Shown: positions 1,338-28,658 of the stretch, piece after piece
Layout: each line of letters begins with the position of its first letter
Position numbering within the stretch: position 1 is the first letter of the stretch
DNA from: Leptospirales bacterium
Lineage (GTDB): Bacteria > Spirochaetota > Leptospiria > Turneriellales > JAOUFE01
Assembly: GCA_040326155.1 (NCBI GenBank)
Contig: JBEQLE010000010.1
Coordinates: 1 to 64,000, forward strand
DNA: 64,000 bases
Direction: 5' to 3'
Translations under genes and position numbers: made by a program
The notes under the pieces: model-generated
Databases searched by the model: none
What the model was told of the DNA's origin: nothing
The model's input: only the letters and a program-made list of their open reading frames with translations

Positions 1338-1521
1338 ACAAAATTTCCCAGTTAGCATCAATGATTATTTTTTAGAAAAGAGGTGACCGAGGCCACGACA
1401 ATTATGATAATTTTTTTTTATTAAACAGCTTATTTCTTTTATTTATTGACAATTAGTACTTATAATATCTAATTGTATTATCAGGAAATAACTGACACTG
1501 ATTATGAAACAGGATTAAGAA

Positions 1522-2079
1522 ATGATTGATAATTTATTTCAATTTAAAGAACAACTTAATACAGATAATATTATATTCTGCATCAATGGTCCATTCACTC
1601 AAGAACTTACTTCAGGAATTGCCGAAAGCTTAAAACAAAAAATGGACTTAGAAGAAGTCAGTGTATCAACAACAATGAAACTTTTTTCTGTTCTCGTAGA
1701 AAAAGCACAAAATATCATCCATTATTCGGTTGAACGAGCCGCAAAATCCATCCATGAAGATGAACCAACCGGTACTCTGGCTTTTGGAATTATTATTGTC
1801 GGCTATGAGAATGATCATTATTATATCCTCGGTGGAAATAAAGTAAAAAACATCCATGTAAAAGCCTTGACAGAGAAACTCTCACTTGTACAAAAAATGA
1901 ACAAAGATGAATTAAAGAAATATTACAATGAGCAGAGAAAAAAAGAACGAAAAGAGAACCATAAAGGCGCTGGTTTGGGATTTATAGAAATTTCAAGAAA
2001 AGCCAGCTCACCAATTGAGTTTAATTTTCAAAAAATCGATGATACGTACTCTTTTTTTAATATAACAACAATAATTTGA
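1522..2079 (+). CDS. siaB: SiaB-family protein kinase (DUF6272-like)
   Basis: GPFTQEL, KLFSVLVEKAQNIIHYS and GAGLGFIEISRKASSPIEFNF are SiaB-type motifs; directly upstream of a SiaC-like gene. Confidence 0.8.
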   Translation: MIDNLFQFKEQLNTDNIIFCINGPFTQELTSGIAESLKQKMDLEEVSVSTTMKLFSVLVEKAQNIIHYSVERAAKSIHEDEPTGTLAFGIIIVGYENDHYYILGGNKVKNIHVKALTEKLSLVQKMNKDELKKYYNEQRKKERKENHKGAGLGFIEISRKASSPIEFNFQKIDDTYSFFNITTII

Positions 2080-2090
2080 AAGGACAACAA

Positions 2091-2477
2091 GTGGATAATC
2101 TGGTACTAAACGCAACAAAGTATACCCCCGAAATATTTTTTGACTACGAAAAAAACCTGCTTAAAATTAGCGGGAAATCTTATCCTGAAGATACATCTCA
2201 ATTCTATACACCGATTATCGACGCCCTGGAAAAATATATCGATGAAATTCAAGACCAAAATGTAAATTTAGTCTTCGATATTATCTATTTTAACAGTAGT
2301 ACCTCCAAAGTATTCATGGATATTTTTGACTTGCTAGACGGAGCGGTTAAAGAAGGGAAGAATATAGTCGTAAATTGGGAATACAATAAAGAAAATGACA
2401 GCCTTCTGGAATACGGTACCGAGTTTAAAGAAGACCTGAAATATCTTCCGTTTAATCTTCAGCCTAAAGACGACTGA
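2091..2477 (+). CDS. siaC: SiaC-family regulatory phosphoprotein (DUF1987)
   Basis: TPEIFFD, ISGKSYPED, YFNSSTSK and VNWEY...YGTEFKED motifs; GTG start at 2091 preceded by AAGGA (ORF track starts at TTG 2076). Confidence 0.85.
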   Translation: MDNLVLNATKYTPEIFFDYEKNLLKISGKSYPEDTSQFYTPIIDALEKYIDEIQDQNVNLVFDIIYFNSSTSKVFMDIFDLLDGAVKEGKNIVVNWEYNKENDSLLEYGTEFKEDLKYLPFNLQPKDD

Positions 2478-2499: not shown

Positions 2500-2796
2500 T
2501 CATTTAACATGGATTATAATTTCTTTAACAGGAATATCGTGAAAATTTTTATTCCAGGGCTGAGTTTCATAGAACAATATTTTAACTGTTCCTTTTTTTT
2601 GGGTTTGAATTCGGAATCCGACTTGTATGGCGTCGCCAGGCTTTAAATTTTTGTTTTGTGCGGTTTTAAGCCTGGATATGGAAACAATTCCTTCCATGTC
2701 AACTTCGTACATTAAAGCTAAACCTGCGGAAATTCTGTTTTTCAAAACGAGGTCGCAGTGTTCCCCTTGTTTTTTATGAATGGTTTCTATATGCAT
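2500..2796 (-). CDS. Divergent chagasin-like (I42) cysteine protease inhibitor
   Basis: 98 aa from ATG 2796 (AGGA upstream). KNRISAGL, KPGD..VGFRI and GTVKILFYETQPW correspond in position to the chagasin loops NPTTGY, VGAGG..F and Y.RPW. Lies directly downstream of a C1A protease. Confidence 0.6.
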   Translation of the reverse strand: MHIETIHKKQGEHCDLVLKNRISAGLALMYEVDMEGIVSISRLKTAQNKNLKPGDAIQVGFRIQTQKKGTVKILFYETQPWNKNFHDIPVKEIIIHVK

Positions 2797-2901
2797 TACA
2801 GATATCCTGCGTAAAGTCTCTACGCTACTATTTGAACCCCGATTAACATGCAAGTTTAACCGAGATTCAATACGCCGACCTTACACAAAAGCGCTCTTTA
2901 A

Positions 2902-4290
2902 TTAAGAACTGGTAAATCCATTTTTCTCCCAGTGCGTCCCGGAGTAGGACGAATCGGTGTTTGGCGCAAGGCCCACAGTACCATCTTTTGTATGGCCGTC
3001 CAGGTAAACGAAATCGGAATTGCCAGTTGTATTCAGGCATTTAAATGCAGTACTACCATCAGACAATTGTTCTTTCTGCCAATGCGTTCCAGAATTATCC
3101 GAATCGGTGTTGGCAGCAAGACCTACGCTGCCATCTTGTGTATTACCATCTAAGTAAACAAAATCTGATTTCTCAGTTGTACCCATGCATTTTAACGCAA
3201 CACTGCCATCAGACAGTTGCTGCTCTTCCCAATAAGTGCCTGGGTTAGAATATGCATTTGTATCAGCACAGAGATTGACCGAACCATTTTTCGCAATCCC
3301 GTCTAAATATAAATACTTTGCATTAACATCCGTACCAAGACATTTATAATAATTAAGAATTATTTTTGGAAGTGTAATTCCCTTAACGCCCACTTTTTCA
3401 TTTTCATCAATATTACATTCGCCATAAGCAATGTTAAAATAACCATCCATCCCCCAATGCTCAGACCATGAATTTTTACAAATATAATAGCCACCGTCAG
3501 CGTCATTGTAACCGACAATACAGATCACATGATTACCGGAGCTTTCTCCATGCACATGCGTATAAATGCCTGATTGGTACTCCAAAATGTCATCATAAAG
3601 CTTCATAACAGCGGATATGGGACCGATCTTTGCCAGGTATTCTTTTGTAGCATCCAAATCGGTGATCGTTATAATCTCCGAATATTTAAATGCATTGTCG
3701 TCTCTCATCGGGCTAATTATGCATTTTGGGGCAATTTTAGTTGCTTCTATCATATTTTTCGGGTTGCTCAAATCTTCTGGAAATTCCTCCGACAAATCGG
3801 CAACCGAATAAGCTGACGGATACGGAAATAGTATTTCCTGGCAAATCCCTCTCTCTTTATTTTCTTGCAATAGGTTGAGTGGCCAGGAGGCTTCAGTACA
3901 ATTTGGGCCATGCGCAGAACAAAAGAATTCATCCGCCTCTGAAAGTTCCACTAATTGTTGATGTTCTATTGCTATTCTTGCTTCCATAACCGCAGATGTT
4001 CCAAATGCCGAGCATATCGGACACAATCCTTGAAATTTTACCGGTGTAACAAAATCTCCATTATTATCTCGCCAATCGATTTTAGATGGTAATGTCGAAG
4101 TATCTACTGCTTTTTTAGTAACACGAGCAGGTGTCTGATAGCCAGCTGGTTTAACTGCGCCTGCCAGCCGCTTTCTCGCCTGTTTGTCCAATCGGTGAAT
4201 CGGGTTCGAGTCCGGATCAAAATTTGCCTCCCATTTTGCCCCCGCTTTTTTAATTTTATCTTTAAGATCATTTATATCTAATAAATCCAT
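2902..4290 (-). CDS. Papain-family (C1A) cysteine protease with three C-terminal ~50-aa repeats (beta-trefoil-like)
   Basis: LPSKIDWR, QGLCPICSAF (catalytic Cys), GNHVICIVGY (His), CKNSWS (Asn), WGMDGYF. Three repeats of KC.GT...YLDG...GSV.L..NT....GT.W. No signal peptide. GGAGG RBS. Confidence 0.92.
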   Translation of the reverse strand: MDLLDINDLKDKIKKAGAKWEANFDPDSNPIHRLDKQARKRLAGAVKPAGYQTPARVTKKAVDTSTLPSKIDWRDNNGDFVTPVKFQGLCPICSAFGTSAVMEARIAIEHQQLVELSEADEFFCSAHGPNCTEASWPLNLLQENKERGICQEILFPYPSAYSVADLSEEFPEDLSNPKNMIEATKIAPKCIISPMRDDNAFKYSEIITITDLDATKEYLAKIGPISAVMKLYDDILEYQSGIYTHVHGESSGNHVICIVGYNDADGGYYICKNSWSEHWGMDGYFNIAYGECNIDENEKVGVKGITLPKIILNYYKCLGTDVNAKYLYLDGIAKNGSVNLCADTNAYSNPGTYWEEQQLSDGSVALKCMGTTEKSDFVYLDGNTQDGSVGLAANTDSDNSGTHWQKEQLSDGSTAFKCLNTTGNSDFVYLDGHTKDGTVGLAPNTDSSYSGTHWEKNGFTSS

Positions 4291-4567
4291 TTTGTATCCT
4301 CCCTCTTTTAATAATTTGATTTAAAATGCACTGCCGAAAATCGGTTACATTTCGAGTCAAACAATACACTCAAGACATAAAAACCGATAAAACCATATCC
4401 GTCAATTAAAAATTTCATATTATTCATTTATATTTATTAAATTGCTTAGAGACAATGTACACATCTCTAATAATTTACCAGATAATTACAGGTTAAAAAG
4501 ATTGGCGAAAGATTTTTACTCGAAGAGGTATAATATATTAAAATATTATTATATCAATAAATTTTCA

Positions 4568-7500
4568 TTACAAAGTAAAACCGAATACAGCGAGATCGTC
4601 TAACCTGTCCTCACCTTTCATATGATCATCAAAAGCGCTTAATAATAGTGTTTCTTGATCTTTTATTGGCTTTTCATTGTTTTTAAGAATCAAATTTTTT
4701 AGTCTCTGTTTTCCAAATGGGATATTGTCCTTTCCGCCAATTTGGTTGTAAAGGCCATCCGTGGACATAAAAAAGGATGTCCCTTTTTCAATCGGAATAG
4801 TGTGATTCGTGAATTTAAAGTTTAAGTCTGATCTTTTATATCCAATACTATGTCGATCTCCGTTAATTATTATAGCTTCGCCTTTCGAAAAGTATAGAAC
4901 CGGCACTCTGGCGCCGGAATATATAACAACGTTGTCTTTCATATTAATGTTACAAATAGCGGCGTCCAACCCGTCATCCGACAGGGCAAACTCCGTTTCC
5001 TGTTGCAGAGTGGTTTTAACTATAAAGTTTAGTCTGCTTAAAATTTCATTTGGAACATAACAATTTTCTTCGGATATAATTCTTTTTAGTGCAGTCGACG
5101 CTATCATCGTCATAAAAGCTCCCGGAACTCCATGCCCGGTACAGTCGATTACGGCAACTATAAAGTTTGTTTCAGAGAAAAATGTATAGATTATATCACC
5201 ACCGACAATATCTCTCGGCTTCCATATAAAAAAACTATTCGGAAGGTATTTTTGCACAGTTTGTTTATTTGGTAATAAAGAAGTCTGAATCATTTGCGCA
5301 TATTGAATACTATCCATGATTTTTGTATTGGCTTCTTCAAGATCTTGATTTTGGTGTTCCAGTTGTTCCAGAGCATTTTTCAATTTATTTGTACGCTCCT
5401 TTACTTTATCTTCCAGAGTAGCATACAAACCGGCGTTATCTATTGAAATGGCAGCCTGAGAAGATAACAGGTTGAGTACTTCTAAACGCTCTTCTGGAAA
5501 AGCATTTGTTGTTAAATTATTTTCAAGATAAATAATACCGACAACCTGCCCTTGTTTAATCAGGGGCATACAAAGTACCGATTTAGGTTTATACTTTTTT
5601 ATATACGGATCATTATTAAACTTAGTATCATTTTCGGCATCGTTTAATACGATACTATTTTGGGTTCTTTCCACATAGTTTACGATGGCAATGGAAACAA
5701 GCGGCGTACTATTTGGCGACTCGATTGGAGTAGATTGCATCACCTGTACATCAGCGTCATCGAGCTTGTTAGCCGCTTCGATATGCCACATCCCTTGTTT
5801 TTGTGATAAAAAATAACCTTTTTCAGCCCCGGCATTTTCAATTGTTATGCGCATCATCTTCTTTAAAAGTTCGTCCAGTCTAATTTCCTGAGAAATTGCC
5901 TGGGAATTTTTTAAAATGGAAGCCAGGTCCAGAGAGGATGAGGGTAGAATCGATGAACGGGTGGATACTTCGCTCATGTTATTACCGGCGGTTGTATCTT
6001 CAAAACCCAGAGCTTCCATAGAAATAAGTTGGGGGTATTCTTGTTTTAAAGCTTCCATCTTGGGTTGACATCCCCACTTCATATAGCTATAATAAGCATT
6101 CGTCATATAAATTCTTGCAATTTCAACAAGATTGTTTGAAAGATAATATTTAGCCATTAATTCATTGGCAATGGCCACTTCATGTGTTATTTGCTGGTCA
6201 TTACTAAGTTTAATGGCCTCCAGGTATAGTTTGGTCGTTTCTCCCATCGGTTTGTTTTCTGCCCGGCTGAGTTCAGCTTGAAGCAATATGTATTTATTTA
6301 TATAATTCTCGGGGCAGGCATCACTCCACATCTTAAATTTCTTTATAATTTTCTTTAGTTTCGATAAATGCTTTCTCTTGTTCCTCGAATTTTTTGAAAT
6401 TAAAGAGGATAGCAAAAGCCCGTAAAATAAGTAGAAGAGCATCGTGGTTTGTAAACTCAAAAAGATATCAACATTTTTCTCCACTTGCCTGGCTATTTCC
6501 AAAGTTTCCGGTTTACTACCGAATATATAGTGAAGTATTAATGTGAATAACCTGTAATTGCCATAGGTGGAAATATCCTTTTTTTCTTCCCATAAAGCGA
6601 TGTTTTCTTCCGCGTTAAACTTTTCCCCATTTATAGCATATTTATCTTCGGAATTACCAATTAAATTTTCCACAGCCTGGTAAACCAGATTATAACCGCT
6701 TTCTGTTTGCGGTTGTTTCAATGGAATAATTTTTTTTTGAATTTTTTCCATCTGATTACTAAGATTATTTAAATTTTCTCCCATGCTGAACAAGGATTGG
6801 CCGTAGTCCCACAGCGCATACCCGTAATATTCAAAATTTCCATCTTCAAGGCATATATTTACCGCTTTCTTATAAGCATCACTTCGATCTCGGAATGCAA
6901 TTTTTAAATGCAACTGCCCGACATAATTAGTGTAAAAAGTCGCTGCCCTGCCAACGTTGTTTTGATACTTGTTTGACAGATTGACAGCAAGTTCGCCAAA
7001 TTCGGTTCCTTTTTTAATATTTCCCATGGAACTCGAAAGAATGAGTCCGTAAATTGCTATTGCAAAAGGGGACATCGGCGCTATTCCGTGTACCAAAGAC
7101 AGGTTAAAAACCTTTAATATGATCATAGGTACGTAGTCAGGAGCGACGGTCAAAGCAGGCGTTGTACATAGACCCATAATTTCTATGGCCGCTATTATTC
7201 GTTCATCTTTCATTTCCGGTAAATCAATAATAGACTTACTTTTTTTTCTACGCAATAAAATTTGTGATTTTACAATTTCCTTTAAAATATATATTTTACC
7301 AGGTTTGCCGGGAAGAGGAATACCCAGTTGTTTCAAAGTTGCCTTTCCGATATCCAACGCCTGTTTGGCTTTCATTTGCGTAATATAATGCCTCATCATA
7401 ATCGCATATATTTGTTGTTTCTCTAATATAGTTTTTGCATGATGTAATATATCTTTAAATAAATTTTCAGCTTTATCAAAATTTCTTGCTAGATACTCTG

Positions 7501-9850
7501 CTTCAGACCAAGCCTTGTGAAATTGAAAAGCAAAGCTGTAGTCACTTTCCCAGACTGTTTCAGGCATTAATTCAGCGCCTTTTGTAAAAAATATCGCGGA
7601 GTCGTGATAGGCTGCCGATTCTTTCGCTTTGAGCCCCGCTTTATAATTTATATCAACAAGCTGACCTTTCTCTTCCTTGCTTAAATGGTCTATTGCCCTG
7701 TTCCATTGACTGGCGATGTTAAAAAGATTCTCTCCGGAACCCTTTTCTTTATGTAAAAGCAAGGACTCTTTTCCGATTCGATAATGAATATCCGTTTTTT
7801 CATCTAATAGAGAATACGTAGCGTCCATTACACGGCCATGAATAAAACTAATAGATGTTGTTTCTTTTACTAACAAACCTTCGTTTATAGCTTCTTTAAG
7901 GTCGCTTAGAACATGGGCCGGAGATTTAGACAATACTCTGGCAACGATATCAAGGTCAAAACGCACTCCAAAGCAACAGGCGACTTTCATTGCCTCTATA
8001 GTTTTTGGTGAAAGATTTTTAATGTTATCTACCATCAATGTGACAACATTATCCGTTATATTTTCATCTTGTATTCGTTTAATATCCCATTGCCAACCTA
8101 TATCTTCCGTCGACTTTGAAGCGTTATTATAATGGATTAAGTTTGCTTTATGCAGGGTTTTTAAGAACTCCCTGACAAAAAATGGATTTCCTTTGGTTTT
8201 GCTATGAACAAGGTCCGTAAGTTGCTTCGTATCTTTTGACTGTTTCCCAAAAGCCGCAGAGATCATTTGCAAAATCTGATCTTTGTCGAGAGGTTCAATC
8301 GCATTATTAGTCCAGGGGATTTTTTCCCTTTTCAATTTTTCGAGCATGAGTAAAAACGGGTGTTCATCATTAACTTCGTTTTTTCGATATGTTCCAATAA
8401 ACAAAATACATCTTAAATCAGGCTCACCCATAAGAAAAGAAATCAACTCAAAACTTGCCTGGTCCGCCCAATGGATGTCATCCAGAAAGAAAACGAGCGG
8501 ATGGGTCACCGATGCAAAAACTTCGACAAAATTTCGAAAGGTTAAATTAAAACGGTTTTGTGACTCAACCGGCGGTATAGTTGCGACTTGCGTTTGTTTT
8601 CCAATAATCTGTTCCACAATAGGTATAATTTCCGTTATGACTTGCCCATTATGTCCCAGAGCAGTCCGAATCTGGTTGCGCCAGACATCAAGCTCTTCTT
8701 CACTAAGAGTTAATATCCTTTTCAGCATTTCATTGAACGCCTGAATAATTGCGGAATAAGGAGTGTTTTTATCCTGGTGATCGTATTTACCTCTAATGAA
8801 AAATCCTTTTTGGTCAATAACCGTTTTCTGAATTTCATTTACAATCGCTGTCTTGCCTACTCCTGAAGAGCCGGAATAAAACATAATTTGTTTACTTCCC
8901 CGACTACATTTATAATAATTTTCCAACAATTCAGTAACATACTTTTCTCTACCAAAAAGCATATCGGGAAATTGTAATCTATTCGAAACATCATGGCTGG
9001 CTATCTCAAAATCGGTAATTTTGTTATTCTTTAAAGCCGTTGCACATTTTTCAAGATCATATTTTAACCCGTGAATGCTTTGGTACCTGTCTTCTGCATT
9101 TTTTGAAATTAATTTCATTATTATCTCAGAAATGACTTTCGGAATTTTATTATTTATTTCATGGGGAAGCGGCGGTACTTTTGCAATGTGACAGTGTACC
9201 AACTCAGAGGGGTCCTCACTATCGAAAGGCAGTACATTTGTCGCCATTTTATACAAAGTGATACCCAGTGAATAATAATCGGTTCTATAATCGATAGCCC
9301 GATTCATTCTACCGGTTTGCTCGGGTGAAATATAGGCTAAATTGCCTTCGAGCTGGCTTGCATTTAATACCGGTAGACTTTCCTTCGCCAAATCTGATGC
9401 CAGCGAAAAGTCTATAATTTTACATCGACTGTTTTTTGTATCCCATACAATATTATGAATATTAATATCTTTATGGATTATCTTTTTTTCATGTATGCTT
9501 TCTATTCCGTCGGTTATTGATATTGCCAGTGATAAAAACTTTTTAATGGATAGGTCTTCTTTCGCTAATAAATTCCCTAGAGAGTCTCCGCCAACTGACT
9601 CCATTACGATGACAGGTTTACCATCGTATTCAATCAATTTAATTGGTTTAATTACGTTTGGCGCATCAATAGTATCCAGAATTTTAAATTCTGTTTTAAT
9701 ATTCGCAATTTGATCTGGTGACGGATATTCACCGGCCAGACTTTTTAGAATGATTTCTACATTATCAGATTCTCGTCGACCACTGTAGATAATCGTTCTT
9801 TTATTCTGGTGCAGTATTCCATCTAAATTGTACCCTGATACTTTAATCAT
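4568..9850 (-). CDS. Multidomain sensor: Ser/Thr kinase + AAA/STAND ATPase + helical region + GAF + PP2C (SpoIIE) phosphatase
   Basis: HKDINIHN, IIDFS, YISPEQTGRMNR (kinase); GSSGVGKT and FLDDIHWAD (ATPase); SVLCMPL..YLENN (GAF); PRDIVGGD, DCTGHGVPGAFMT, STDG, DD (PP2C). Confidence 0.93.
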   Translation of the reverse strand: MIKVSGYNLDGILHQNKRTIIYSGRRESDNVEIILKSLAGEYPSPDQIANIKTEFKILDTIDAPNVIKPIKLIEYDGKPVIVMESVGGDSLGNLLAKEDLSIKKFLSLAISITDGIESIHEKKIIHKDINIHNIVWDTKNSRCKIIDFSLASDLAKESLPVLNASQLEGNLAYISPEQTGRMNRAIDYRTDYYSLGITLYKMATNVLPFDSEDPSELVHCHIAKVPPLPHEINNKIPKVISEIIMKLISKNAEDRYQSIHGLKYDLEKCATALKNNKITDFEIASHDVSNRLQFPDMLFGREKYVTELLENYYKCSRGSKQIMFYSGSSGVGKTAIVNEIQKTVIDQKGFFIRGKYDHQDKNTPYSAIIQAFNEMLKRILTLSEEELDVWRNQIRTALGHNGQVITEIIPIVEQIIGKQTQVATIPPVESQNRFNLTFRNFVEVFASVTHPLVFFLDDIHWADQASFELISFLMGEPDLRCILFIGTYRKNEVNDEHPFLLMLEKLKREKIPWTNNAIEPLDKDQILQMISAAFGKQSKDTKQLTDLVHSKTKGNPFFVREFLKTLHKANLIHYNNASKSTEDIGWQWDIKRIQDENITDNVVTLMVDNIKNLSPKTIEAMKVACCFGVRFDLDIVARVLSKSPAHVLSDLKEAINEGLLVKETTSISFIHGRVMDATYSLLDEKTDIHYRIGKESLLLHKEKGSGENLFNIASQWNRAIDHLSKEEKGQLVDINYKAGLKAKESAAYHDSAIFFTKGAELMPETVWESDYSFAFQFHKAWSEAEYLARNFDKAENLFKDILHHAKTILEKQQIYAIMMRHYITQMKAKQALDIGKATLKQLGIPLPGKPGKIYILKEIVKSQILLRRKKSKSIIDLPEMKDERIIAAIEIMGLCTTPALTVAPDYVPMIILKVFNLSLVHGIAPMSPFAIAIYGLILSSSMGNIKKGTEFGELAVNLSNKYQNNVGRAATFYTNYVGQLHLKIAFRDRSDAYKKAVNICLEDGNFEYYGYALWDYGQSLFSMGENLNNLSNQMEKIQKKIIPLKQPQTESGYNLVYQAVENLIGNSEDKYAINGEKFNAEENIALWEEKKDISTYGNYRLFTLILHYIFGSKPETLEIARQVEKNVDIFLSLQTTMLFYLFYGLLLSSLISKNSRNKRKHLSKLKKIIKKFKMWSDACPENYINKYILLQAELSRAENKPMGETTKLYLEAIKLSNDQQITHEVAIANELMAKYYLSNNLVEIARIYMTNAYYSYMKWGCQPKMEALKQEYPQLISMEALGFEDTTAGNNMSEVSTRSSILPSSSLDLASILKNSQAISQEIRLDELLKKMMRITIENAGAEKGYFLSQKQGMWHIEAANKLDDADVQVMQSTPIESPNSTPLVSIAIVNYVERTQNSIVLNDAENDTKFNNDPYIKKYKPKSVLCMPLIKQGQVVGIIYLENNLTTNAFPEERLEVLNLLSSQAAISIDNAGLYATLEDKVKERTNKLKNALEQLEHQNQDLEEANTKIMDSIQYAQMIQTSLLPNKQTVQKYLPNSFFIWKPRDIVGGDIIYTFFSETNFIVAVIDCTGHGVPGAFMTMIASTALKRIISEENCYVPNEILSRLNFIVKTTLQQETEFALSDDGLDAAICNINMKDNVVIYSGARVPVLYFSKGEAIIINGDRHSIGYKRSDLNFKFTNHTIPIEKGTSFFMSTDGLYNQIGGKDNIPFGKQRLKNLILKNNEKPIKDQETLLLSAFDDHMKGEDRLDDLAVFGFTL

Positions 9851-9976
9851 AATTTCCTTTGTAGATTATTATACAATTAAACTACAATTCCCTATATGAT
9901 GTTCGATAAGTCAATAATTTAAAACATTCTATAGTCATGCGATAATTTTTAAATAAGTTTTTTTGTAATAAAAATC

Positions 9977-10004
9977 TTGACTCGTACTTTCAGTGTTATA
10001 GGGT
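9977..10004 (+). promoter_or_regulatory. Putative sigma70-type promoter of precursor 1
   Basis: TTGACT-N16-TAGGGT; the same arrangement recurs before precursor 2; GGAGG RBS follows. Confidence 0.5.
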
Positions 10005-10036
10005 AGCATTACTCAAGTATGAGATGGAGGTAAATT

Positions 10037-10306
10037 ATGGATTTACAACATGAGAAAAATAGAGTTTTAACTCATTTAATTCTGGACAAGGGATTTCGGG
10101 ACAGCTTGAAAAACAGTACGAGTGACGGCGTAAAAGACGTTATAAATGGCGCCAATGTCGATCCCCCTTTGAAGGCCAGTGACCTTGATGACGGCTTTTT
10201 AACAAAATTGAAAACAGCCGTAGATACCAAGGATTTGGGAAGCCAACCAATTGATAGTATCGAATCTTTAAAAGGTGGAGTAGAACCTGCTCCTGCTTCC
10301 TGGTAA
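10037..10306 (+). CDS. Putative RiPP precursor 1 (NHLP/Nif11-like leader, C-terminal GG-VEPAPASW)
   Basis: 89 aa, GGAGG RBS, paralog of 10700..10987. RVLTHLILDKGFRDSL resembles the 'D..F...L' leader helix of NHLP-clan precursors. Upstream of three rSAM genes. Confidence 0.75.
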   Translation: MDLQHEKNRVLTHLILDKGFRDSLKNSTSDGVKDVINGANVDPPLKASDLDDGFLTKLKTAVDTKDLGSQPIDSIESLKGGVEPAPASW

Positions 10307-10340
10307 TTTCACCAGAATTTTAAAGACTTTTGATGGTTAT

Positions 10341-10362
10341 CGACCTGGCTTAGTCCAGGTCG
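10341..10362 (+). terminator. Stem-loop after precursor 1 (terminator or mRNA stabiliser)
   Basis: CGACCTGG-cttagt-CCAGGTCG; a related hairpin follows precursor 2; no strong U-tract. Confidence 0.5.
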
Positions 10363-10381
10363 CTATATTAGATGTCGGCGA

Positions 10382-10522
10382 GAATTCTATGATTTTATAG
10401 GGTTAATTGCCTTTGGTCATCAATAGTACCCAGAATTTCAAATTCTCTTCTTCCGCTGTAAACAGCGTTCATTTATTTTGTTGCAAAATTCCAGTTAAAC
10501 TGCACCCTGATACATTAACCAT
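10382..10522 (-). pseudogene. Decayed duplicate of the 5' end of the kinase gene 4568..9850
   Basis: Minus strand from ATG 10522 reads MVNVSGCSLTGILQQNK*T, then after frameshifts YSGRRE-FEILGTID and PKAINPIK..IEF. The intact kinase reads MIKVSGYNLDGILHQNKRT..YSGRRE...EFKILDTIDAPNVIKPIKLIEY. Confidence 0.85.
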
Positions 10523-10637
10523 AATTACACTTGCAGATTTACTCTACTACTAAACTACAATTGTCCCATGATGTTTAATGGGTTAATTATTAAACATCCG
10601 ATATATTGATTTTAAAATGATTTTTTTAATAAAAATG

Positions 10638-10665
10638 TTGACCACCACTGTAGGTGATATACGGT
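10638..10665 (+). promoter_or_regulatory. Putative sigma70-type promoter of precursor 2 and the rSAM genes
   Basis: TTGACC-N16-TACGGT, homologous to 9977..10004; GGAGG RBS follows. Confidence 0.5.
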
Positions 10666-10699
10666 AGTATTAATAAAATTAAAAGATTGGAGGGAAATA

Positions 10700-10987
10700 A
10701 TGGAAACAAATGATCTACAAGGTTCACAAAACAGAATTTTAACTCACATGGTGCTAGATAAGGCTTTCTATGAAAGTTTGAAAGGCAAGACGATTGTGGA
10801 AATGAGAAACGTTGTAAATGACGCTCAGATCGATCCCAATTTACAGGCCGCCCAACTTGGTGACGATTTCTTTACAAGATTAGGTACAGCCGTCAATGAT
10901 AATGGGGATTTGGAAACTAAACCAATTCAGGACATCTTAATCTTAAAAACTGAGGTGATGGGGCAGCCTGCACCAGCTTCCTGGTAA
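10700..10987 (+). CDS. Putative RiPP precursor 2 (C-terminal VMG-QPAPASW)
   Basis: 95 aa, GGAGG RBS, aligns over its full length with precursor 1; identical PAPASW terminus. Confidence 0.75.
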   Translation: METNDLQGSQNRILTHMVLDKAFYESLKGKTIVEMRNVVNDAQIDPNLQAAQLGDDFFTRLGTAVNDNGDLETKPIQDILILKTEVMGQPAPASW

Positions 10988-11112
10988 TTTCACTAGAATT
11001 TTAAAGACTTTTGAAATTAGTCCTGGTTAAGTCCAGGTCATAAAATCCGAGAACAAAGCAATTATATGCTTCATGCATTATTTTGGCTTTGTCTGGACAA
11101 ATCACAAGATAT

Positions 11113-11142
11113 AGGGCATCATCATAGCGGGTGATGCCTTTT
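11113..11142 (+). terminator. Terminator-like hairpin between precursor 2 and the first rSAM gene
   Basis: AGGGCATCATC-atagcg-GGTGATGCCTT running into a short T tract, ~18 nt before the ATG at 11160. Confidence 0.55.
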
Positions 11143-11159
11143 CAACAGGGTAGTAGAAT

Positions 11160-13022
11160 ATGAAAACTGTACTTATAGCAACTCACCAGGTTTCTTTTGA
11201 TCTTCCGGTATCGTTATATTGTAGCATGGGTGTTCTGACCCTGGCTACTGCTCTAAAAAAGCGTAACCTGCCATGCGAAGTTCTTGATTTATTTGAACAT
11301 AATGATTTACATGAAAGCAATTATGATGAAGCTATAGATGCAGTTGTTGAAAAAATTCTTTTATCGAAACCGGACGTTATAGGCTTTTCAACGATGAGCG
11401 ATAATTTAATCATCGCTCTGGAGCTGGCAAAACGGATAAAGCAAGCTCGTCCCGCAGTTCATACTATTTTGGGCGGCCCGGGAAGCGCCTTTTGCGCACA
11501 AGACATCCTTTTAAACTTTCCCCATACCGACCTGGTCATCCGAGGAGAGGCGGACGATGTTTTCCCCGAATATATCGAGTCTCTGAATCAAGGGCAGACC
11601 AATAACGATTTACGCGGATTGGTATTTCGCAACGAACAAAAAATAATCGATAACGGATGGCCGGACCCGATAAAAGATATGGACTCTCTTCCGATATCGG
11701 ATTATAATTTAATTAATGGATTAGGTATAAAACCTGGTGATCACAGGTATGGCGGTTTCGGTGTTGTTACGATCGAAATTGGCCGCGGTTGCCCCTATTC
11801 CTGTTCTTTTTGTTCTACTTCCACCTATTTTAATCGGGAATTCAGGGTAAAATCTACGGACCGCATAATCGAAGAGATGTTATTGATTGAAAAAAAACTG
11901 GGGCCAGTCCGGATACTATTCAATCATGATACTTTTACAGTAGATCGAGAGTATGTATTAGAACTATGCGATAAAATTATAAAAAATATCCCCAACCCGG
12001 ACTGGTTATGCTTTTCCAGACTGGATACGCTTGATAAAGAGATGTATACAAAAATGGGAGAAGCCGGTTGTACCGATATCTTTGTAGGACTTGAAAGCGC
12101 TACAAAGAAAATGCAAAAGACGCTCAATAAAAAACTGGATGTCAATGAATTTGATATGTTACTGGACATTGCCAAGAATACGAAAATTGGAATTGTCCTT
12201 GCATTTATTGTCGGTTTTCCCGAAGAAGAAAAACAAGACATTAAAGAAATGCTCTCGTTTTTACTCAAAGTAAAATATTTAACTCGGGACCAATCCACCA
12301 TTATCTTTGCCGCATTAACCCCTATGATCGGGACTCCTATATATAAAACATGGAAAAACAAATTAGCGTATGATAAGTATGGTAGCAGAGGCACCACGGA
12401 TATACCCTTTAAATGGACTTCCTTTAGAGAGACGATTCAGGCATATCCTGAAATTTTTTCTGTATTTTTTCATTTGGACACCGGTGGCGCTAAAAGATTG
12501 AATGATGTAAAATATCAGTCCATAGTCGCAACACTGGATATAATATTAAATGCATCAATTTTAATAGCTTATGAATGGTTAGAGAAAGGTGTTGCCGAGG
12601 CTTTGGTTCAACATATCGATGAAATTAATTTTCCTGAACCGACACGGGCGGGATTCTTCGACTCTCCGGCTTTGGCGGAATCGATTCGAAAGGTAATTTA
12701 CACAGCTATGCAGAATGAACCGTTAGCGCAGGCAATGTTTGACGCTGTGGCTAAATATGAGATAGCCAAATACGAAGTGCAGTTAATAAAAAACAGCAGC
12801 CATTCTATAGTTATTGAGGTTATTGTCGATCCGATTCCTTTGGCCGAGCAAATTGAAAATCGCATGGGAATGAAAAAAATTGCTGAAAATTTAACTGTGA
12901 ACAATCAACCAATGCATTATATGGTAATTCGTGATGAAGAGAATCAAAAGATTAAAGCTACGAAAGTTTCTTCTGACATGGTCAAAATTCTTGACTCAGA
13001 TGCAAAGGCAGTGGAGACTTAA
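11160..13022 (+). CDS. Cobalamin-binding radical SAM enzyme 1 (class B methyltransferase-like)
   Basis: N-terminal B12-binding Rossmann domain (PDVIGFS..ILGGPG..VIRGEAD); GRGCPYSCSFC CxxxCxxC motif; ~200-aa C-terminal extension. Confidence 0.92.
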   Translation: MKTVLIATHQVSFDLPVSLYCSMGVLTLATALKKRNLPCEVLDLFEHNDLHESNYDEAIDAVVEKILLSKPDVIGFSTMSDNLIIALELAKRIKQARPAVHTILGGPGSAFCAQDILLNFPHTDLVIRGEADDVFPEYIESLNQGQTNNDLRGLVFRNEQKIIDNGWPDPIKDMDSLPISDYNLINGLGIKPGDHRYGGFGVVTIEIGRGCPYSCSFCSTSTYFNREFRVKSTDRIIEEMLLIEKKLGPVRILFNHDTFTVDREYVLELCDKIIKNIPNPDWLCFSRLDTLDKEMYTKMGEAGCTDIFVGLESATKKMQKTLNKKLDVNEFDMLLDIAKNTKIGIVLAFIVGFPEEEKQDIKEMLSFLLKVKYLTRDQSTIIFAALTPMIGTPIYKTWKNKLAYDKYGSRGTTDIPFKWTSFRETIQAYPEIFSVFFHLDTGGAKRLNDVKYQSIVATLDIILNASILIAYEWLEKGVAEALVQHIDEINFPEPTRAGFFDSPALAESIRKVIYTAMQNEPLAQAMFDAVAKYEIAKYEVQLIKNSSHSIVIEVIVDPIPLAEQIENRMGMKKIAENLTVNNQPMHYMVIRDEENQKIKATKVSSDMVKILDSDAKAVET

Positions 13023-13040
13023 AAGTCTCGGTCTCTAAAT

Positions 13041-14882
13041 ATGAAAGTTACCCTGGTTGCGACGCATCAGATAACGAAAACGCATCCAACTCCGCTCTAT
13101 AGCGCATTGGGAGTGCTTGCACTCGCTGCGGCAGTAAAACAGCGGCAATATGAATGTGAAGTTATTGATCTGGTTCGCTATAATAAGGTGGCGGAACATT
13201 TGTTTGAACCGATGGCAGATGAAATTGCTGAAAAACTTTTAGAAACAAAACCCGATATTATTGGGTTTTCCACCATTACGGATAATTTAATTATTGCTCT
13301 TGAACTTGCTAAAAGAGTAAAAAAAATGTCACCGGGTATATGCATCATAATGGGTGGGCCGGGAGTTTCCTATTGTTCTCAAGATGTATTAGAGAACTTT
13401 CCCGCTGTGAACTATATAATACGCGGGGAAGCGGATTATGCCTTTCCGGATTTTCTTTCAGCCTATGAAGCTAAGGACGAGAATCCCCAGATTAAAGGTC
13501 TCGTTTACCACAATGGCGATACCATGGTCGATTTGGGATGGCCAGACCCGGTTGAAGATCTGGATCAACTGCCTATTCCGGCATATGAATTTTGCACAGA
13601 CATCGAATTTGAAACTTCATGGTATGACCATCGATATGGCTTTCTTATTGAAGCCGGTAGAGGCTGTCCGTACAATTGCAGTTTTTGTTCCTCTTCGTTT
13701 TATTTTAAACGGAAGTACAGAGTAAAATCGATTGAAAGATTAGTTAAGGAAATTCATTATTTAAGAGGAAAGATTAAAAATAAAAGAGCTCGGTTCATTC
13801 ATGATTTACTGACATTTAAACAAGATTATATGGAGAAGTTGTGCGAAGCTCTGACTTTGGAGTTTCCAGATCTCAAATGGGGCTGCGATTCTCGCCTTGA
13901 TACGATTGACCCTCCGTTAATAGAAAAAATGGTTAAATCGGGGTGTGACTTTATATTTCTTGGCATTGAAGCTGCAACACCCAGAATGCAAAAAAACATC
14001 GGAAAAAGGCTCGATTTGAGTCGTATTGATACTGTATTGGAAAGTTTTAAAAAATGGAAGATTAAATTTATTTTTTCATTCGTAGTGGGGTTGCCTGAAG
14101 AGGATGAGTCGGATATCAGGGCGATCTTTAAGTTGGCATTTAAAACAAGAGCTGCATGTGGAAATAATTGTACCGTACAACTGCATCCTTTAATACCCGA
14201 ACTGGGCTCCAGTCTGTTTCCTGAAGATTTAAATGATATCGTATACGATGTAAATCATAGAATGGTGGAAAATGCGCTGCCATTTCACTGGACCGAACTT
14301 CGAAAAATCGTACAAAAACACCCAGGTATATTTCCGAGTTTTTACAGACTTAAAAAAACGTTAGGTAATTATTCCTCACCTGAAACTGACCCGTCAAAAT
14401 TTGCCCACTTTACGCTGATTCTTCAAGAAGGAATGATAAATTCTCTGCTTTTTGCTTATCGCGTGCTGGGGGACGAACAACTGGCAAAAGTAATTTTTGA
14501 GTGTATGGATGAATTCACTTTTGCAGATATGGATACAAGAGAAGAAGCGGAATTTAACGACATATTTACTTTGATACGAACAAGAACCGCCAATTTGATT
14601 GGAGAAAATGAGGAAAACAAAAGACTCGTCGAAGTATTTAAATCTCTGGCAACATTTGAAATGGCAGTTTATAAAATCAGGCAAAAAGAATCCTCCGAAT
14701 ATATTGAACAAATTGATGTTTCCTATTCCGAAGAGGAAATGCTGTTTTTAGCCTCAAATCCAGATGCTCATGAAGATGTATCTCCCAGACAGAGGCGCTT
14801 AATGATACTTTGGGACAAAGGTGAAAGTAACATTAAGTGTGTGGAAGTGTCTCTAGACATGCAAAATTTAGCAAACATTTAA
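13041..14882 (+). CDS. Cobalamin-binding radical SAM enzyme 2
   Basis: PDIIGFS..IMGGPG..IIRGEAD; GRGCPYNCSFC; FIHDLLT; FLGIE. Confidence 0.92.
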   Translation: MKVTLVATHQITKTHPTPLYSALGVLALAAAVKQRQYECEVIDLVRYNKVAEHLFEPMADEIAEKLLETKPDIIGFSTITDNLIIALELAKRVKKMSPGICIIMGGPGVSYCSQDVLENFPAVNYIIRGEADYAFPDFLSAYEAKDENPQIKGLVYHNGDTMVDLGWPDPVEDLDQLPIPAYEFCTDIEFETSWYDHRYGFLIEAGRGCPYNCSFCSSSFYFKRKYRVKSIERLVKEIHYLRGKIKNKRARFIHDLLTFKQDYMEKLCEALTLEFPDLKWGCDSRLDTIDPPLIEKMVKSGCDFIFLGIEAATPRMQKNIGKRLDLSRIDTVLESFKKWKIKFIFSFVVGLPEEDESDIRAIFKLAFKTRAACGNNCTVQLHPLIPELGSSLFPEDLNDIVYDVNHRMVENALPFHWTELRKIVQKHPGIFPSFYRLKKTLGNYSSPETDPSKFAHFTLILQEGMINSLLFAYRVLGDEQLAKVIFECMDEFTFADMDTREEAEFNDIFTLIRTRTANLIGENEENKRLVEVFKSLATFEMAVYKIRQKESSEYIEQIDVSYSEEEMLFLASNPDAHEDVSPRQRRLMILWDKGESNIKCVEVSLDMQNLANI

Positions 14883-14886
14883 CAAA

Positions 14887-16728
14887 ATGAAAACCCTGCT
14901 TATTGCCACTCACCAGATCTCTTTTTCGCAGCCGCAATCTTTATACAATTGTCTTGGTGTGTTAACTCTGGCCGCTTGCTTGAAAAAGCGCAACCTGAAT
15001 TGTGAAGTTTTAGACCTGTTTGAATATAACGACCTTTATAATCGAGATTGCAGTGAAGTATTGGATTCCATTGCTCAAAAAATTATAGCCGCAAAGCCCG
15101 ACATTCTTGGTTTTTCGGCGATGATCAATAATCTACCCATTGCCCTGGAGTTGGCCGCTCGTGTTAAGAAAATTCGACCCGATGTGTTTACTGTTTTTGG
15201 AGGACCGGGCGCAGCTTTTTGTGCCAAAGAAGTTCTGTTAAATTTTAAACAAGTGGATGTCATTTTTCGAGGCGAGGCCGATGTGGTCTTTCCCGGTTAT
15301 ATTGAAAATTTAGCAAATAATAATAACAGCAACAACTCGGTTCCAGGGTTGATTTTTCGAAACGGAGCAGAAATCGTAGATAACGGCTGGCCCGAACCGA
15401 TTGCAAATCTGGATGAGCTTCCCGTTCCAGATTATCATTTTGACAGTGAATCTTATAAGAGTCAGACAACAAAGCAATTTGGCGATTACAATGGTGTCTC
15501 CATAGAAGTCGGCCGCGGTTGTCCATATACGTGTACGTTTTGTTCCACTTCCGAGTATTTTAAACGAAAGTATCGGTTAAAGACCGTTGATCGAATTATT
15601 GAAGAAATATTATTAATACATAGAAGACTTGGTCGGGCCAGAATTATTTTTAACCACGATCTTCTCACTTTAAAGCGAAAGTTTGTTTTCGAATTATGCG
15701 AACAAATTGAAGCGCGCGTTCCAGGGTTAATCTGGAAGTGCCACGCCAGGTTGGATACTCTGGACTCAGAAATGCTTACCAAAATGAACGAAGCCGGCTG
15801 TAATGAAATTTTTCTGGGTCTTGAAAATGCCACAGAGAAAATGCAAAAAATTGTGAAAAAGAAGCTGGACCTGGATAAATTTGACGTGCCGCTGGAGAGC
15901 GCCGCCTCCTTAGATATGAAGTTCAGTCTCTCTTTTATTGTAGGTTTCCCGGAAGAAGAGGAGGAAGACATTCGCGCTATCTTTGCCTACTCTTTAAAAG
16001 CAAAACAGATGTGCCGCGAAAAAGTCCAAATTAAAATTCATACACTGGCTCCGCTGGTTGGCTCGGCTTTGTATGAACAATGGAAAGATAGACTGGTGTA
16101 CGACGCCTATGGAAGTATTTCGACTACCGATATTCCGCATTCCTGGAGCTCTTTAAGAAACACCATTCAAGGTCACCCCGAGATATTTTCCATATATTTT
16201 CATTTAGACATTGGACAATCGCGAAGAATAAATTCGTCCAAATATGGCTATTTAGGTTTAATTATTGAGAAATTGATGATTTATAGTATGTCGTTGGCCC
16301 ATGAATGGCTCGGCGATAGCATTGCCGAAATTTTTGTAAATAATATTGATGAAATTATTTTACCGCAAGCCGCATCGGCAAAAGACTCAGAATATCATGC
16401 TCTGGCGCAGTCTGTCAGAAAACTACTCACAAAGGCTTTGCAATACGATTCGGTAGCACAGAGCATGTACGATGCTGTGGCCCAATATGAAATTGCCGTT
16501 CTCGATATAATGAGCAATAGAACGAATGGCTACATGAAAGTTATTGAAGTCTATTATGACCCGGAGGAATTAATAGAACGAATCCATAAATGGCAGACTA
16601 TGAAACAAGTTGCTGAAAATCTAAACAAAAGAGATGAACCGCTTTGCTTAATGATTTTATGGGACGATAAGGAAAATAAACTGAAACGAACGGAAATTTC
16701 ACCGGATTTCGCTCACCTAGTCAGTTAA
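14887..16728 (+). CDS. Cobalamin-binding radical SAM enzyme 3 (close paralog of enzyme 1)
   Basis: PDILGFS..FGGPG..FRGEAD; GRGCPYTCTFC; C-terminal YDAYGS..TTDIP..PEIFS..FHLD shared with enzyme 1. Confidence 0.92.
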   Translation: MKTLLIATHQISFSQPQSLYNCLGVLTLAACLKKRNLNCEVLDLFEYNDLYNRDCSEVLDSIAQKIIAAKPDILGFSAMINNLPIALELAARVKKIRPDVFTVFGGPGAAFCAKEVLLNFKQVDVIFRGEADVVFPGYIENLANNNNSNNSVPGLIFRNGAEIVDNGWPEPIANLDELPVPDYHFDSESYKSQTTKQFGDYNGVSIEVGRGCPYTCTFCSTSEYFKRKYRLKTVDRIIEEILLIHRRLGRARIIFNHDLLTLKRKFVFELCEQIEARVPGLIWKCHARLDTLDSEMLTKMNEAGCNEIFLGLENATEKMQKIVKKKLDLDKFDVPLESAASLDMKFSLSFIVGFPEEEEEDIRAIFAYSLKAKQMCREKVQIKIHTLAPLVGSALYEQWKDRLVYDAYGSISTTDIPHSWSSLRNTIQGHPEIFSIYFHLDIGQSRRINSSKYGYLGLIIEKLMIYSMSLAHEWLGDSIAEIFVNNIDEIILPQAASAKDSEYHALAQSVRKLLTKALQYDSVAQSMYDAVAQYEIAVLDIMSNRTNGYMKVIEVYYDPEELIERIHKWQTMKQVAENLNKRDEPLCLMILWDDKENKLKRTEISPDFAHLVS

Positions 16729-28259: not shown

Positions 28260-28658
28260 AAAGTACAACTACATTGGGTTAGGTTAACCTATATACATAT
28301 AATTCGCCGAACAGTAAATTTTTACCTTATCGCACTTAACTCTGCCTCCACCCAACAATCGCAAAAAATAATTGAATTTTCTTGTGAACTAAAACCGATA
28401 TCAAACTACTTTCCGATGGGGTTGCCCCTTCTTATAAACCAAAAATCACCAAACTTTATGGTGAGGGTTAACTTAGAAAACATTTTCATTCGGGACGTTT
28501 GCAGATGGTATTTTTAATAGAAAATTATCATGAGATGATAACCAATTAGATCCATATTCAATTGTATAATTATGCCAGGGGGTTTATCTGTGTTGGAAGT
28601 TAGTTGACACTTGGTTGTAACATTACTTACTAGTCAAAATCAACAATATGGAGTGACT

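Follow-up and report, generated by a model that had tools for sequence, protein, structure and literature searches.

The window analysed here is a stretch of 64,000 nucleotides from a Leptospirales bacterium (positions 1 to 64,000 of contig JBEQLE010000010.1, assembly GCA_040326155.1). It contains a candidate gene cluster for a peptide made by the ribosome and modified after translation (RiPP), in which two small precursor genes are followed on the same strand by three genes for B12-binding radical S-adenosylmethionine (rSAM) enzymes, and in which the gene of a giant kinase runs in the opposite direction. An earlier note on this DNA, made from the letters alone, had described two small genes with strong ribosome-binding sites, both ending in PAPASW and directly followed by three co-directional B12 rSAM genes. 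The open reading frames (ORFs), the translations and the Pfam matches all agree with that description. The core of the cluster consists of the following features.

10037..10306, plus strand: precursor 1, 89 aa, tail ...GGVEPAPASW (from the translation), with an NHLP-clan-like leader
10700..10987, plus strand: precursor 2, 95 aa, tail ...MGQPAPASW (from the translation), paralogous to precursor 1
11160..13022, plus strand: class B (B12-binding) rSAM enzyme 1, 620 aa, in one orthogroup with P0010 and P0013
13041..14882, plus strand: class B rSAM enzyme 2, 613 aa, in one orthogroup with L089:5090-6943 and P0034
14887..16728, plus strand: class B rSAM enzyme 3, 613 aa, in one orthogroup with P0009, P0011 and P0012; the last ~170 aa are probably TglI/DUF2063-like
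4568..9850, minus strand: protein of 1760 aa with Ser/Thr kinase, AAA_16 STAND, TPR, GAF and SpoIIE/PP2C domains (from Pfam), the divergent partner of the cluster
9851..10036, no strand: divergent intergenic and promoter region between the kinase gene and precursor 1, with a second copy before precursor 2 at about 10540-10699
10418..10539, no strand: relic of the 5' end of the kinase gene

Precursor genes and radical SAM enzymes

Precursors 1 and 2 are 53% identical to each other, and in both genes a GGAGG-type ribosome-binding site can be read in the sequence 5-8 nt ahead of the ATG. When the precursor profile was run against the whole genome, these two genes were the only matches. A tandem duplication of ~670 bp accounts for the two copies; its unit also includes the promoter region, a relic of the kinase 5' end and the 3' flank; the repeat families of the duplication have a spacing of 661-681 nt and an identity of 75-94%. 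The DNA identity between the precursor copies is 0.67 in the leader, 0.90 in the six core codons plus stop and 0.80 in the 3' flank. The two copies of the promoter region are 72% identical (repeat families D1, D2 and D6, spacing about 661-673 nt), and a TTGAC box, read from the sequence, is kept in both. A promoter scan of the regions upstream of the precursors gave matches at the level of the consensus and nothing stronger. The kinase relic is recognised by repeat families D5 (91%) and D3 plus D1 (80%) as a copy of 9664-9867, a segment that covers the beginning of the kinase gene and the DNA just upstream. Each precursor gene is followed by a hairpin (-21.2 and -13.9 kcal/mol, z -2.4 and -2.0). 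A reading of these hairpins as terminators was rejected because the U-tract is absent.

The three rSAM genes are separated by gaps of 18 and 4 nt. All three products match the B12-binding domain PF02310 (62-67 bits, cut-off 32.1) as well as the Radical_SAM domain PF04055 (63-70 bits, cut-off 29.5), and the cluster cysteines C212, C216 and C219 of the CxxxCxxC motif are invariant across 32 sequences. By these sequence features the proteins are class B, i.e. cobalamin-dependent, rSAM enzymes. A cobalamin riboswitch is present in the genome, which fits the use of B12.

The subfamily to which the enzymes belong is small. About 30 full-length relatives were found among 5.8 billion proteins, all of them 38-68% identical with E below 1e-130, and some carry the source label Thorarchaeota. 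Beyond this subfamily the score drops and the remaining relatives align over the first ~440 residues only, so the last ~170 aa are specific to the subfamily. In the organism's own genome the subfamily was matched at three places only, and among 400 other genomes sampled from the phylum no member was found. In a quick maximum-likelihood tree the three window enzymes fall into three orthogroups, each of which has a counterpart in the metagenomic locus L089 or in the contig of P0009 and P0010, and the single enzymes of loci L090, L091 and L092 form a separate clade.

The AlphaFold (AF2) model of enzyme 3 has a pLDDT of 91.3. In a Foldseek search with this model the top matches were TokK (7kdx, E 5e-20) and CysS (9n1d, E 7e-20), followed by MgmA, AprD4, OxsB and TsrM (6wte, E 3e-16). 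The enzymes are thus predicted to fold like the class B methylases TokK and CysS. The C-terminal domain was modelled alone from nine sequences (pLDDT 87.9). In VIA-align it was paired with a 268-aa chain of TglHI at Z 10.6 (156 of 172 residues), with the DUF2063 structure 3dee at Z 9.8 and with MbnC chains at Z 5.5 and 5.0, where unrelated folds start at Z 5.0 for this domain and values under about 13 may reflect an arrangement common in helical domains. We take the 268-aa chain to be TglI, because it ranks together with DUF2063 and MbnC. The modelled fold suggests that the C-terminal domain is likely a peptide-binding domain of the TglI/DUF2063/MbnC type, known as partner proteins of MNIO enzymes. 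Such an assignment agrees with ApyD, a class B rSAM enzyme with a built-in peptide-recognition element that forms beta-methyl-Tyr at the penultimate residue of ApyA (PMC10635010), and with the alignment of the ApyD model to enzyme 3, which covers residues 21-592, i.e. runs through the C-terminal domain.

The complex of enzyme 3 with precursor 2 was also predicted. It was marked as 'weak support' with a score of 0.48, while the best of the 3 controls scored 0.00; the runs share at least 61% of the contacts and the pLDDT of the partner is at least 70. Of 157 solved complexes 116 pass this mark, as do 2 of 215 mismatched pairs, but with scores of 0.60 or less only 18 of the 157 pass it, together with both passing mismatches.

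Related loci, the kinase partner and the flanking genes

Metagenomes were scanned with a single pattern placed on the subfamily-specific region, which missed the archaeal-type branch. The scan gave 5 loci, 4 of which were usable (L089-L092). Three of these (L089, L091 and L092) have the layout of the window, i.e. a giant kinase on the minus strand, a divergent ORF of ~80 aa on the plus strand and one or more rSAM genes on the plus strand. The number of rSAM genes per cluster varies from one to three. The check proposed earlier, whether the rSAM genes co-occur with a small gene, came out in favour of the pairing, which is kept in these three other lineages. Counting the window, a fifth locus with precursor and enzyme would consist of precursor P0134 and enzyme P0015, for each of which the longest contig has 86292 bp. 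The GC content of the related loci is 42-47.5%, versus 39.6% in the organism's own genome; these differences, and those in sequence, mean that the loci belong to different organisms. When genome contigs were scanned with the full enzyme alignment, the matches listed belonged to the broad family only (identity of 35% or less), and in none of the 80 broad-family loci listed was there a match to the precursor profile at E <= 1.

It is the last residue of the precursors that is conserved across these loci. The small ORFs of L089, L091 and L092 end in LTFVQCW, MGVDNPW and VGLDPQW, respectively, and the further precursor P0134 from the 86-kb contig ends in VGLDPQW as well. Trp is thus the last residue in all six precursors, which come from five loci and four lineages (PAPASW twice, FVQCW, VDNPW, LDPQW twice). 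The background of Trp-ended ORFs in the organism's own genome is ~1.5% (311 of 18948 ORFs of at least 60 aa, 49 of 3319 of at least 150 aa), and the invariance of the terminal Trp exceeds chance. In other words, PAPASW, which had been suggested as a conserved core, is not conserved as such, since the tails FVQCW, VDNPW and LDPQW share with it only the last residue. Orthologous enzyme triplets appear to act beside PAPASW and FVQCW tails, which suggests as the target of modification either the invariant Trp or positions defined by their distance from the C-terminus. A Gly is read 5-9 residues from the C-terminus in five of the six precursors, which suggests a leader cleavage site. Cleavage sites of the Gly-Gly type occur in NHLP and Nif11 leaders.

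The family of the leader is best seen in the relatives. The model NF038399 (Os1348 family NHLP clan protein, cut-off 40 bits) scores 40.7 bits with the syntenic precursor of L089 (P0131), 28 bits with P0130 and 23.6 bits with P0129; it matches four of five aligned precursors, one of them at the cut-off. Precursor 1 (P0001) scores 12.3 bits (E 0.14), which is below the cut-off. The Frankia-type ribosomal peptide family PF14407 gives 29.9 and 22.8 bits with two precursor homologues, under its cut-off of 48 bits. In hhalign the pair of window precursors aligns with the syntenic precursors at a probability of 90% (E 1.6e-6). The idea of an NHLP-type leader, put forward in the earlier note, therefore holds at the level of the clan, because the relatives match NF038399 and hhalign joins the window pair to them, but the window precursors themselves stay below the cut-offs. 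A Nif11 cluster appeared as a structure neighbour in the Atlas (TM 0.50), to be taken as no more than a lead; the Atlas feature search was otherwise without a usable match.

Two of the related loci carry additional enzymes. A second, distantly related B12 rSAM enzyme of the RiPP C-methyltransferase family TIGR03975 lies just downstream of the kinase in L092 (466-2454, minus strand) and in L091 (2-1081, minus strand); the L092 enzyme reaches 457.2 bits, above the cut-off of 281.85. In L091 an S53 (kumamolisin-type) protease, with a pro-kumamolisin activation domain and a subtilase fold, is encoded between the precursor and the rSAM gene (7136-8812, plus strand). This protease has no NCBIfam match.

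The giant kinase gene had previously been read as a sensor kinase that merely separates the peptide genes from the genes on its other side. Pfam shows a Ser/Thr protein kinase with AAA_16, TPR, GAF and SpoIIE/PP2C domains and not a histidine kinase. Nor is the gene merely interposed: no other neighbour accompanies the cluster as constantly, and full-length orthologues adjoin the precursor in L089 (55% identity), L091 (41%) and L092 (38%). A role of the LanL type, i.e. phosphorylation of Ser or Thr in the core, was considered and rejected, because two of the four tail types (VDNPW and LDPQW) contain neither residue. The genome encodes seven paralogues with the Ser/Thr kinase/STAND/GAF architecture (1700-2100 aa), which are 31-38% identical to the copy in the cluster.

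C149:986-5539: kinase paralogue
C66:49173-53702: kinase paralogue
C110:24832-29439: kinase paralogue
C127:33088-37647: kinase paralogue
C149:55457-59914: kinase paralogue
C84:12063-17186: kinase paralogue
C5:5691-10334: kinase paralogue

Seven further copies are a marked expansion for a genome of 4.26 Mb. The genome-wide search with the precursor profile gave no match beside any of them. The cluster-linked kinase is closer to the copies of L089 and L091 than to its own paralogues, which suggests that the kinase and the peptide genes may have been inherited together. L089 encodes an adenylate/guanylate cyclase with AAA_16 STAND and TPR domains (1396 aa; 11279-15469, minus strand) directly after its three rSAM genes and has in this way a second STAND-type signalling protein.

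On the other side of the kinase gene the window contains two further genes that had been regarded as part of the pathway.

2902..4290, minus strand: papain-family (C1A) protease, cytoplasmic-looking
2500..2853, minus strand: weak chagasin-like (I42) gene, 117 aa, 48 nt downstream of the protease gene, putative inhibitor

The protease matches Peptidase_C1 (PF00112) with 137.4 bits (cut-off 20.7). In an alignment with cathepsin H the motifs QGLCPIC/QGSCGSC, NH/NH and KNSW/KNSW correspond, so that the catalytic Gln, Cys, His and Asn align; by its sequence the protein is a member of peptidase family C1. Its N-terminus, read by eye, is hydrophilic. Three C-terminal repeats of ~45 aa (YLDG...G.V.L...SGTHW, residues ~310-462) have no Pfam match and look like a beta-trefoil or lectin-type domain. 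In a sample of 400 further genomes of the phylum the closest homologues are at most 36% identical over the catalytic domain, and none of them is from the same class or order. The chagasin-like ORF scores 20.2 bits with the Pfam I42 model PF09394 (E 7e-4, profile positions 4-80 of 91; cut-off 27.2) and has no match in NCBIfam or among solved structures. The protease half of the proposed pair is thus confirmed by score and catalytic residues, while the chagasin half is weak and below the cut-off. The protease gene lies 277 nt from the kinase gene on the same strand, and at that position L091 and L092 carry the RiPP methylase. In the relatives the kinase operon includes tailoring genes, and the proteases recruited come from different families. 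In the window cluster the protease may trim the leader or the tail.

Further upstream, beside the chagasin-like gene, is a SiaABC-like partner-switch set (276-2477, plus strand), composed of a SpoIIE/PP2C phosphatase of 353 aa, a DUF6272 protein of 185 aa and a SiaC-family phosphoprotein of 133 aa. A PP2C domain also ends the giant kinase, as in this neighbouring phosphatase. The downstream flank has a DUF368 gene, ThyX and an aminotransferase. ThyX (17750-19309, plus strand) is 519 aa long with two Thy1 stretches, i.e. about twice the usual length, and may be a tandem-domain thymidylate synthase. Among genomes of the same order the DUF368 gene was found in three of four and SiaC in none of four, which makes synteny uninformative. 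Two other proteins of the window, unrelated to the cluster, are a PLD-like, SACK1-like and lamin-tail protein of 1135 aa (49282-52689, minus strand) and a Fic-domain protein of 495 aa (26781-28268, minus strand); the remaining window is composed of housekeeping genes. No further peptide-modifying enzyme was seen among the window ORFs scanned, and the earlier statement that the window has no epimerase, YcaO, LanM or exporter holds for the scanned ORFs of at least 110 aa.

The GC content of the cluster is 37.8% as compared to 39.6% for the genome, and there is no compositional sign of recent transfer. FlaA, the flagellar sheath protein, is typical of spirochaetes. It has three matches in the genome versus none in 14 control genomes, which is consistent with the spirochaete host that had been guessed from the letters.

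Interpretation and rival explanations

We propose that the region is a rare RiPP-type cluster in which a tail with a C-terminal Trp is modified, most likely by C-methylation, and we give this reading a probability of roughly 60%. The precursors would consist of a helical NHLP-clan leader of about 80 aa and a short tail, of which the final Trp is the sole fixed residue. The leader would dock on the C-terminal peptide-binding domain that each enzyme brings with it, and the tail would enter the active site. There each rSAM enzyme, with cobalamin and a [4Fe-4S] cluster, would modify the tail, most likely by methylating unactivated carbons in or beside the C-terminal Trp. The chemistry would be radical and methylcobalamin-dependent, and the three window enzymes may carry out three distinct steps. 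A protease would then trim the product, the C1A enzyme in the window, restrained by the chagasin-like protein, and the S53 enzyme in L091. The giant kinase/STAND/GAF/PP2C protein may control the cluster or sense its product. Of the proteusin-like RiPP pathway proposed in the earlier note, this keeps the RiPP type, with leader-bearing genes paired with dedicated B12 rSAM enzymes, and gives up the proteusin in the strict sense.

A number of observations weigh against this reading. The enzymes match no characterised RiPP family in full: their best NCBIfam model is ApyD (NF050148), with 277.3, 272.1 and 288.3 bits for enzymes 1-3 versus a cut-off of 750, and TIGR03975, the PoyB/PoyC type to which they had been likened, gives 139.6, 123.4 and 132.7 bits versus a cut-off of 281.85. 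The comparison with PoyB and PoyC therefore does not hold, as these scores (123-140 bits) are below the cut-off and ApyD scores higher. The window precursors reach no curated family cut-off in Pfam or NCBIfam, and P0002 has no NF038399 match. A word-indexed search with the precursor returned the query itself only, and an exhaustive search of 1.84 billion representatives with the precursor profile gave four matches, namely the precursors themselves and a pair of unrelated repeat proteins; the latter, both long, were judged to be spurious on reading their sequences. At locus L090 the sequence upstream of the enzyme gene is only 216 nt long and holds no precursor, and the ORF downstream is unlike one. 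The enzyme tree is a quick maximum-likelihood version. As to the C-terminal domain, its VIA-align scores lie in the range that common helical arrangements can reach, and Foldseek found nothing at E <= 0.001, the top match being TglHI (E 0.09, probability 0.80). The pair of protease and chagasin-like gene is not seen in L091 and L092, the relatives in which the position is visible. The pair had been the main argument for calling the cluster proteusin-like, a weight it cannot carry when it is seen in the window only. No exporter is found among the window ORFs scanned. Finally, B12 rSAM enzymes also form cross-links, as in the case of PbsB (PMC12257519).

This last point leads to a variant in which the RiPP frame is the same and the rSAM enzymes do not methylate, the outcome being a C-C or C-X cross-link, a ring at the Trp indole or another radical rearrangement. 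Class B rSAM enzymes are also described to perform ring contraction, cyclisation and cross-linking (PMC10635010), PbsB is a RiPP enzyme that makes a biaryl C-C link (PMC12257519), and the fold matches include two enzymes other than methylases, AprD4 and OxsB. We nevertheless find the variant doubtful, given that TokK, CysS and MgmA, which are the best matches by fold, are methylases, as is the best sequence family (ApyD), and that the tails have no second conserved residue before Trp that could be the partner in a cross-link. Alternatively, with its last residue alone fixed, the small protein may serve as nothing but a carrier. The ~80-aa protein would then be a scaffold on which the encoded Trp is elaborated by the one to three rSAM enzymes, to be clipped off by a peptidase as a free Trp-derived metabolite, much as in a pearlin but with no tRNA-dependent ligase. 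Conservation of the last residue alone across four lineages, with orthologous triplets beside PAPASW and FVQCW, is what such a scheme would predict, and the fused domain resembles TglI, which acts on the C-terminal residue of a carrier peptide. Moreover, the B12 rSAM enzyme TmoD binds a carrier peptide and trimethylates its last residue, after which a protease releases the product (PMC9303977). The protease families in the clusters are unrelated to each other (C1 in the window, S53 in L091) and the scanned ORFs of the window hold no exporter, both of which would suit a carrier. The Gly found 5-9 residues from the end in five of the six precursors speaks for the release of a peptide of 5-8 residues instead, PAPASW is identical in the two window paralogues despite the drift of their leaders, and no PEARL-type (LanB-like) gene is present among the ORFs scanned; on balance we consider the carrier unlikely.

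A more radical view is that there is no peptide pathway, that the small proteins are regulatory partners of the kinase, and that the rSAM enzymes act on a lipid, a cofactor or another small molecule. The kinase is indeed the most constant neighbour, the window precursors are below every curated family cut-off, and many class B rSAM enzymes have non-peptide substrates. It is, however, difficult to reconcile this view with the precursor homologue that passes the NHLP-clan cut-off, with a terminal Trp that is invariant while the rest of the tail varies, with a best-matching family that is a RiPP enzyme with a peptide-recognition domain, with the TIGR03975 RiPP methylase and the protease of the relatives, or with the seven kinase paralogues that have no such small gene adjoining, and we hold it to be very improbable. 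For the C1A protease and the chagasin-like gene the situation is nearly balanced, and that they are unrelated neighbours, an ordinary pair of protease and inhibitor, has in our opinion a little less than an even chance. L091 and L092 have an rSAM gene at that position instead, the chagasin match is below the cut-off, and the rest of the upstream flank is the SiaABC-like module, which has no link to peptides. Set against this are the strand and position that the pair shares with the kinase (gaps of 277 and 48 nt), precisely where the relatives hold a RiPP tailoring enzyme, the fact that L091 has its own protease within the cluster, and the lack of a close relative of the protease in the 400 other sampled genomes of the phylum (best 36%), in which it resembles the rSAM enzymes.

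Returning to the RiPP-type cluster with a modified C-terminal Trp, its possible meaning is twofold. B12 rSAM enzymes perform some of the hardest reactions known in peptide natural products, and few of them have an assigned reaction. Here is a small subfamily with a simple substrate rule, namely that the tail ends in Trp, and its members occur in orthologous sets of one to three, which makes every chemical step separately testable. It is also unusual for a modified-peptide cluster to have a giant kinase/STAND/GAF/phosphatase protein as its fixed partner; if the product does signal to the kinase, RiPP chemistry would be linked to a group of bacterial signalling proteins that is widespread and poorly understood. 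Taken to its end, this leads to a speculative picture, which we think is quite improbable, of a self-contained signalling device: the encoded Trp on an NHLP-type carrier would be alkylated by up to three B12 rSAM enzymes and released by a protease as a Trp-derived molecule or a very short peptide, with the kinase as its receptor, so that the whole would be a PEARL-free 'pearlin' and the pair would have moved between bacterial phyla. We found no report of a B12 rSAM enzyme acting on a Trp-terminated NHLP-clan precursor in open-access papers or bioRxiv, a search of which the kinase partnership was not part. Franean1_4349 is not mentioned in these sources either.

Comparison with known systems

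By the sequence comparisons made here the window cluster falls outside ApyD, TIGR03975, the strict proteusins and the pearlins, and it shares individual traits with each of them. The nearest system is that of ApyD and ApyA, which makes aminopyruvatide in Burkholderia thailandensis (NF050148). ApyD is the best curated family for all three window enzymes, and it has the same predicted organisation, i.e. a class B rSAM enzyme with a built-in peptide-recognition domain that acts next to the C-terminus of the precursor, as described for ApyD (PMC10635010). With 272-288 bits, far short of the cut-off of 750, the window enzymes do not qualify as its equivalogs. The window also lacks the MNIO enzyme, the P450 and the SAM methyltransferase; its precursor is unrelated, probably belonging to the NHLP clan and ending in Trp; and the clusters of this kind have one to three paralogous enzymes and a giant kinase as a fixed partner.

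The proteusins, exemplified by polytheonamide (PoyA, PoyB/PoyC), appear to share the NHLP-clan leader. PoyH and PoyG are a pair of a papain-like protease and a chagasin-like protein, to which the papain-family protease of the window and its putative chagasin-like partner would correspond, and L091 and L092 hold a true TIGR03975 enzyme. The differences are that the window enzymes are below the TIGR03975 cut-off, that the tail has 5-8 residues compared to about 50, that the protease pair is not conserved among the relatives, and that no rSAM epimerase, N-methyltransferase or dehydratase is present in the scanned window ORFs. An rSAM epimerase that introduces D-residues is a hallmark of proteusins. 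The scanned ORFs hold no rSAM gene beyond the three of the B12 type, the genome not having been searched with an epimerase model. The B12 rSAM C-methyltransferases of proteusins act on unactivated carbons (PMC11285071), which is the type of reaction proposed here.

The pearlins include TglA/TglHI, which lead to 3-thiaglutamate, and TmoA/TmoD/TmoG, which lead to 3-thiahomoleucine (PMC9303977). As would be the case in the window system, they centre their chemistry on the last residue of a scaffold peptide, from which a protease frees the product; their TmoD is a B12 rSAM enzyme that co-purifies with the carrier peptide (same source). The fused domain of the window enzymes resembles the TglHI chain, DUF2063 and MbnC. 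Unlike in the pearlins, there is no MNIO enzyme in the window, the peptide-binding domain is fused to the rSAM enzyme, and the leader family is a different one. A PEARL ligase was not found either, since no lantibiotic-dehydratase-type domain occurs in the scanned window ORFs; its absence from the cluster can be explained because Trp is encoded in the precursor gene.

The top full-length fold matches of enzyme 3 include TokK and CysS, both sequential methylases, and TsrM, a Trp methylase. Their sequence identity to the enzyme is 13-15%, they have no TglI-like domain, and their substrates are small molecules or free Trp and not a leader-bearing peptide. Compared to all these systems, what is new in the cluster is the Trp-terminal rule of its precursors, the occurrence of one to three enzymes, each fused to a TglI-like domain, as orthologous sets, and the giant kinase as a fixed partner.

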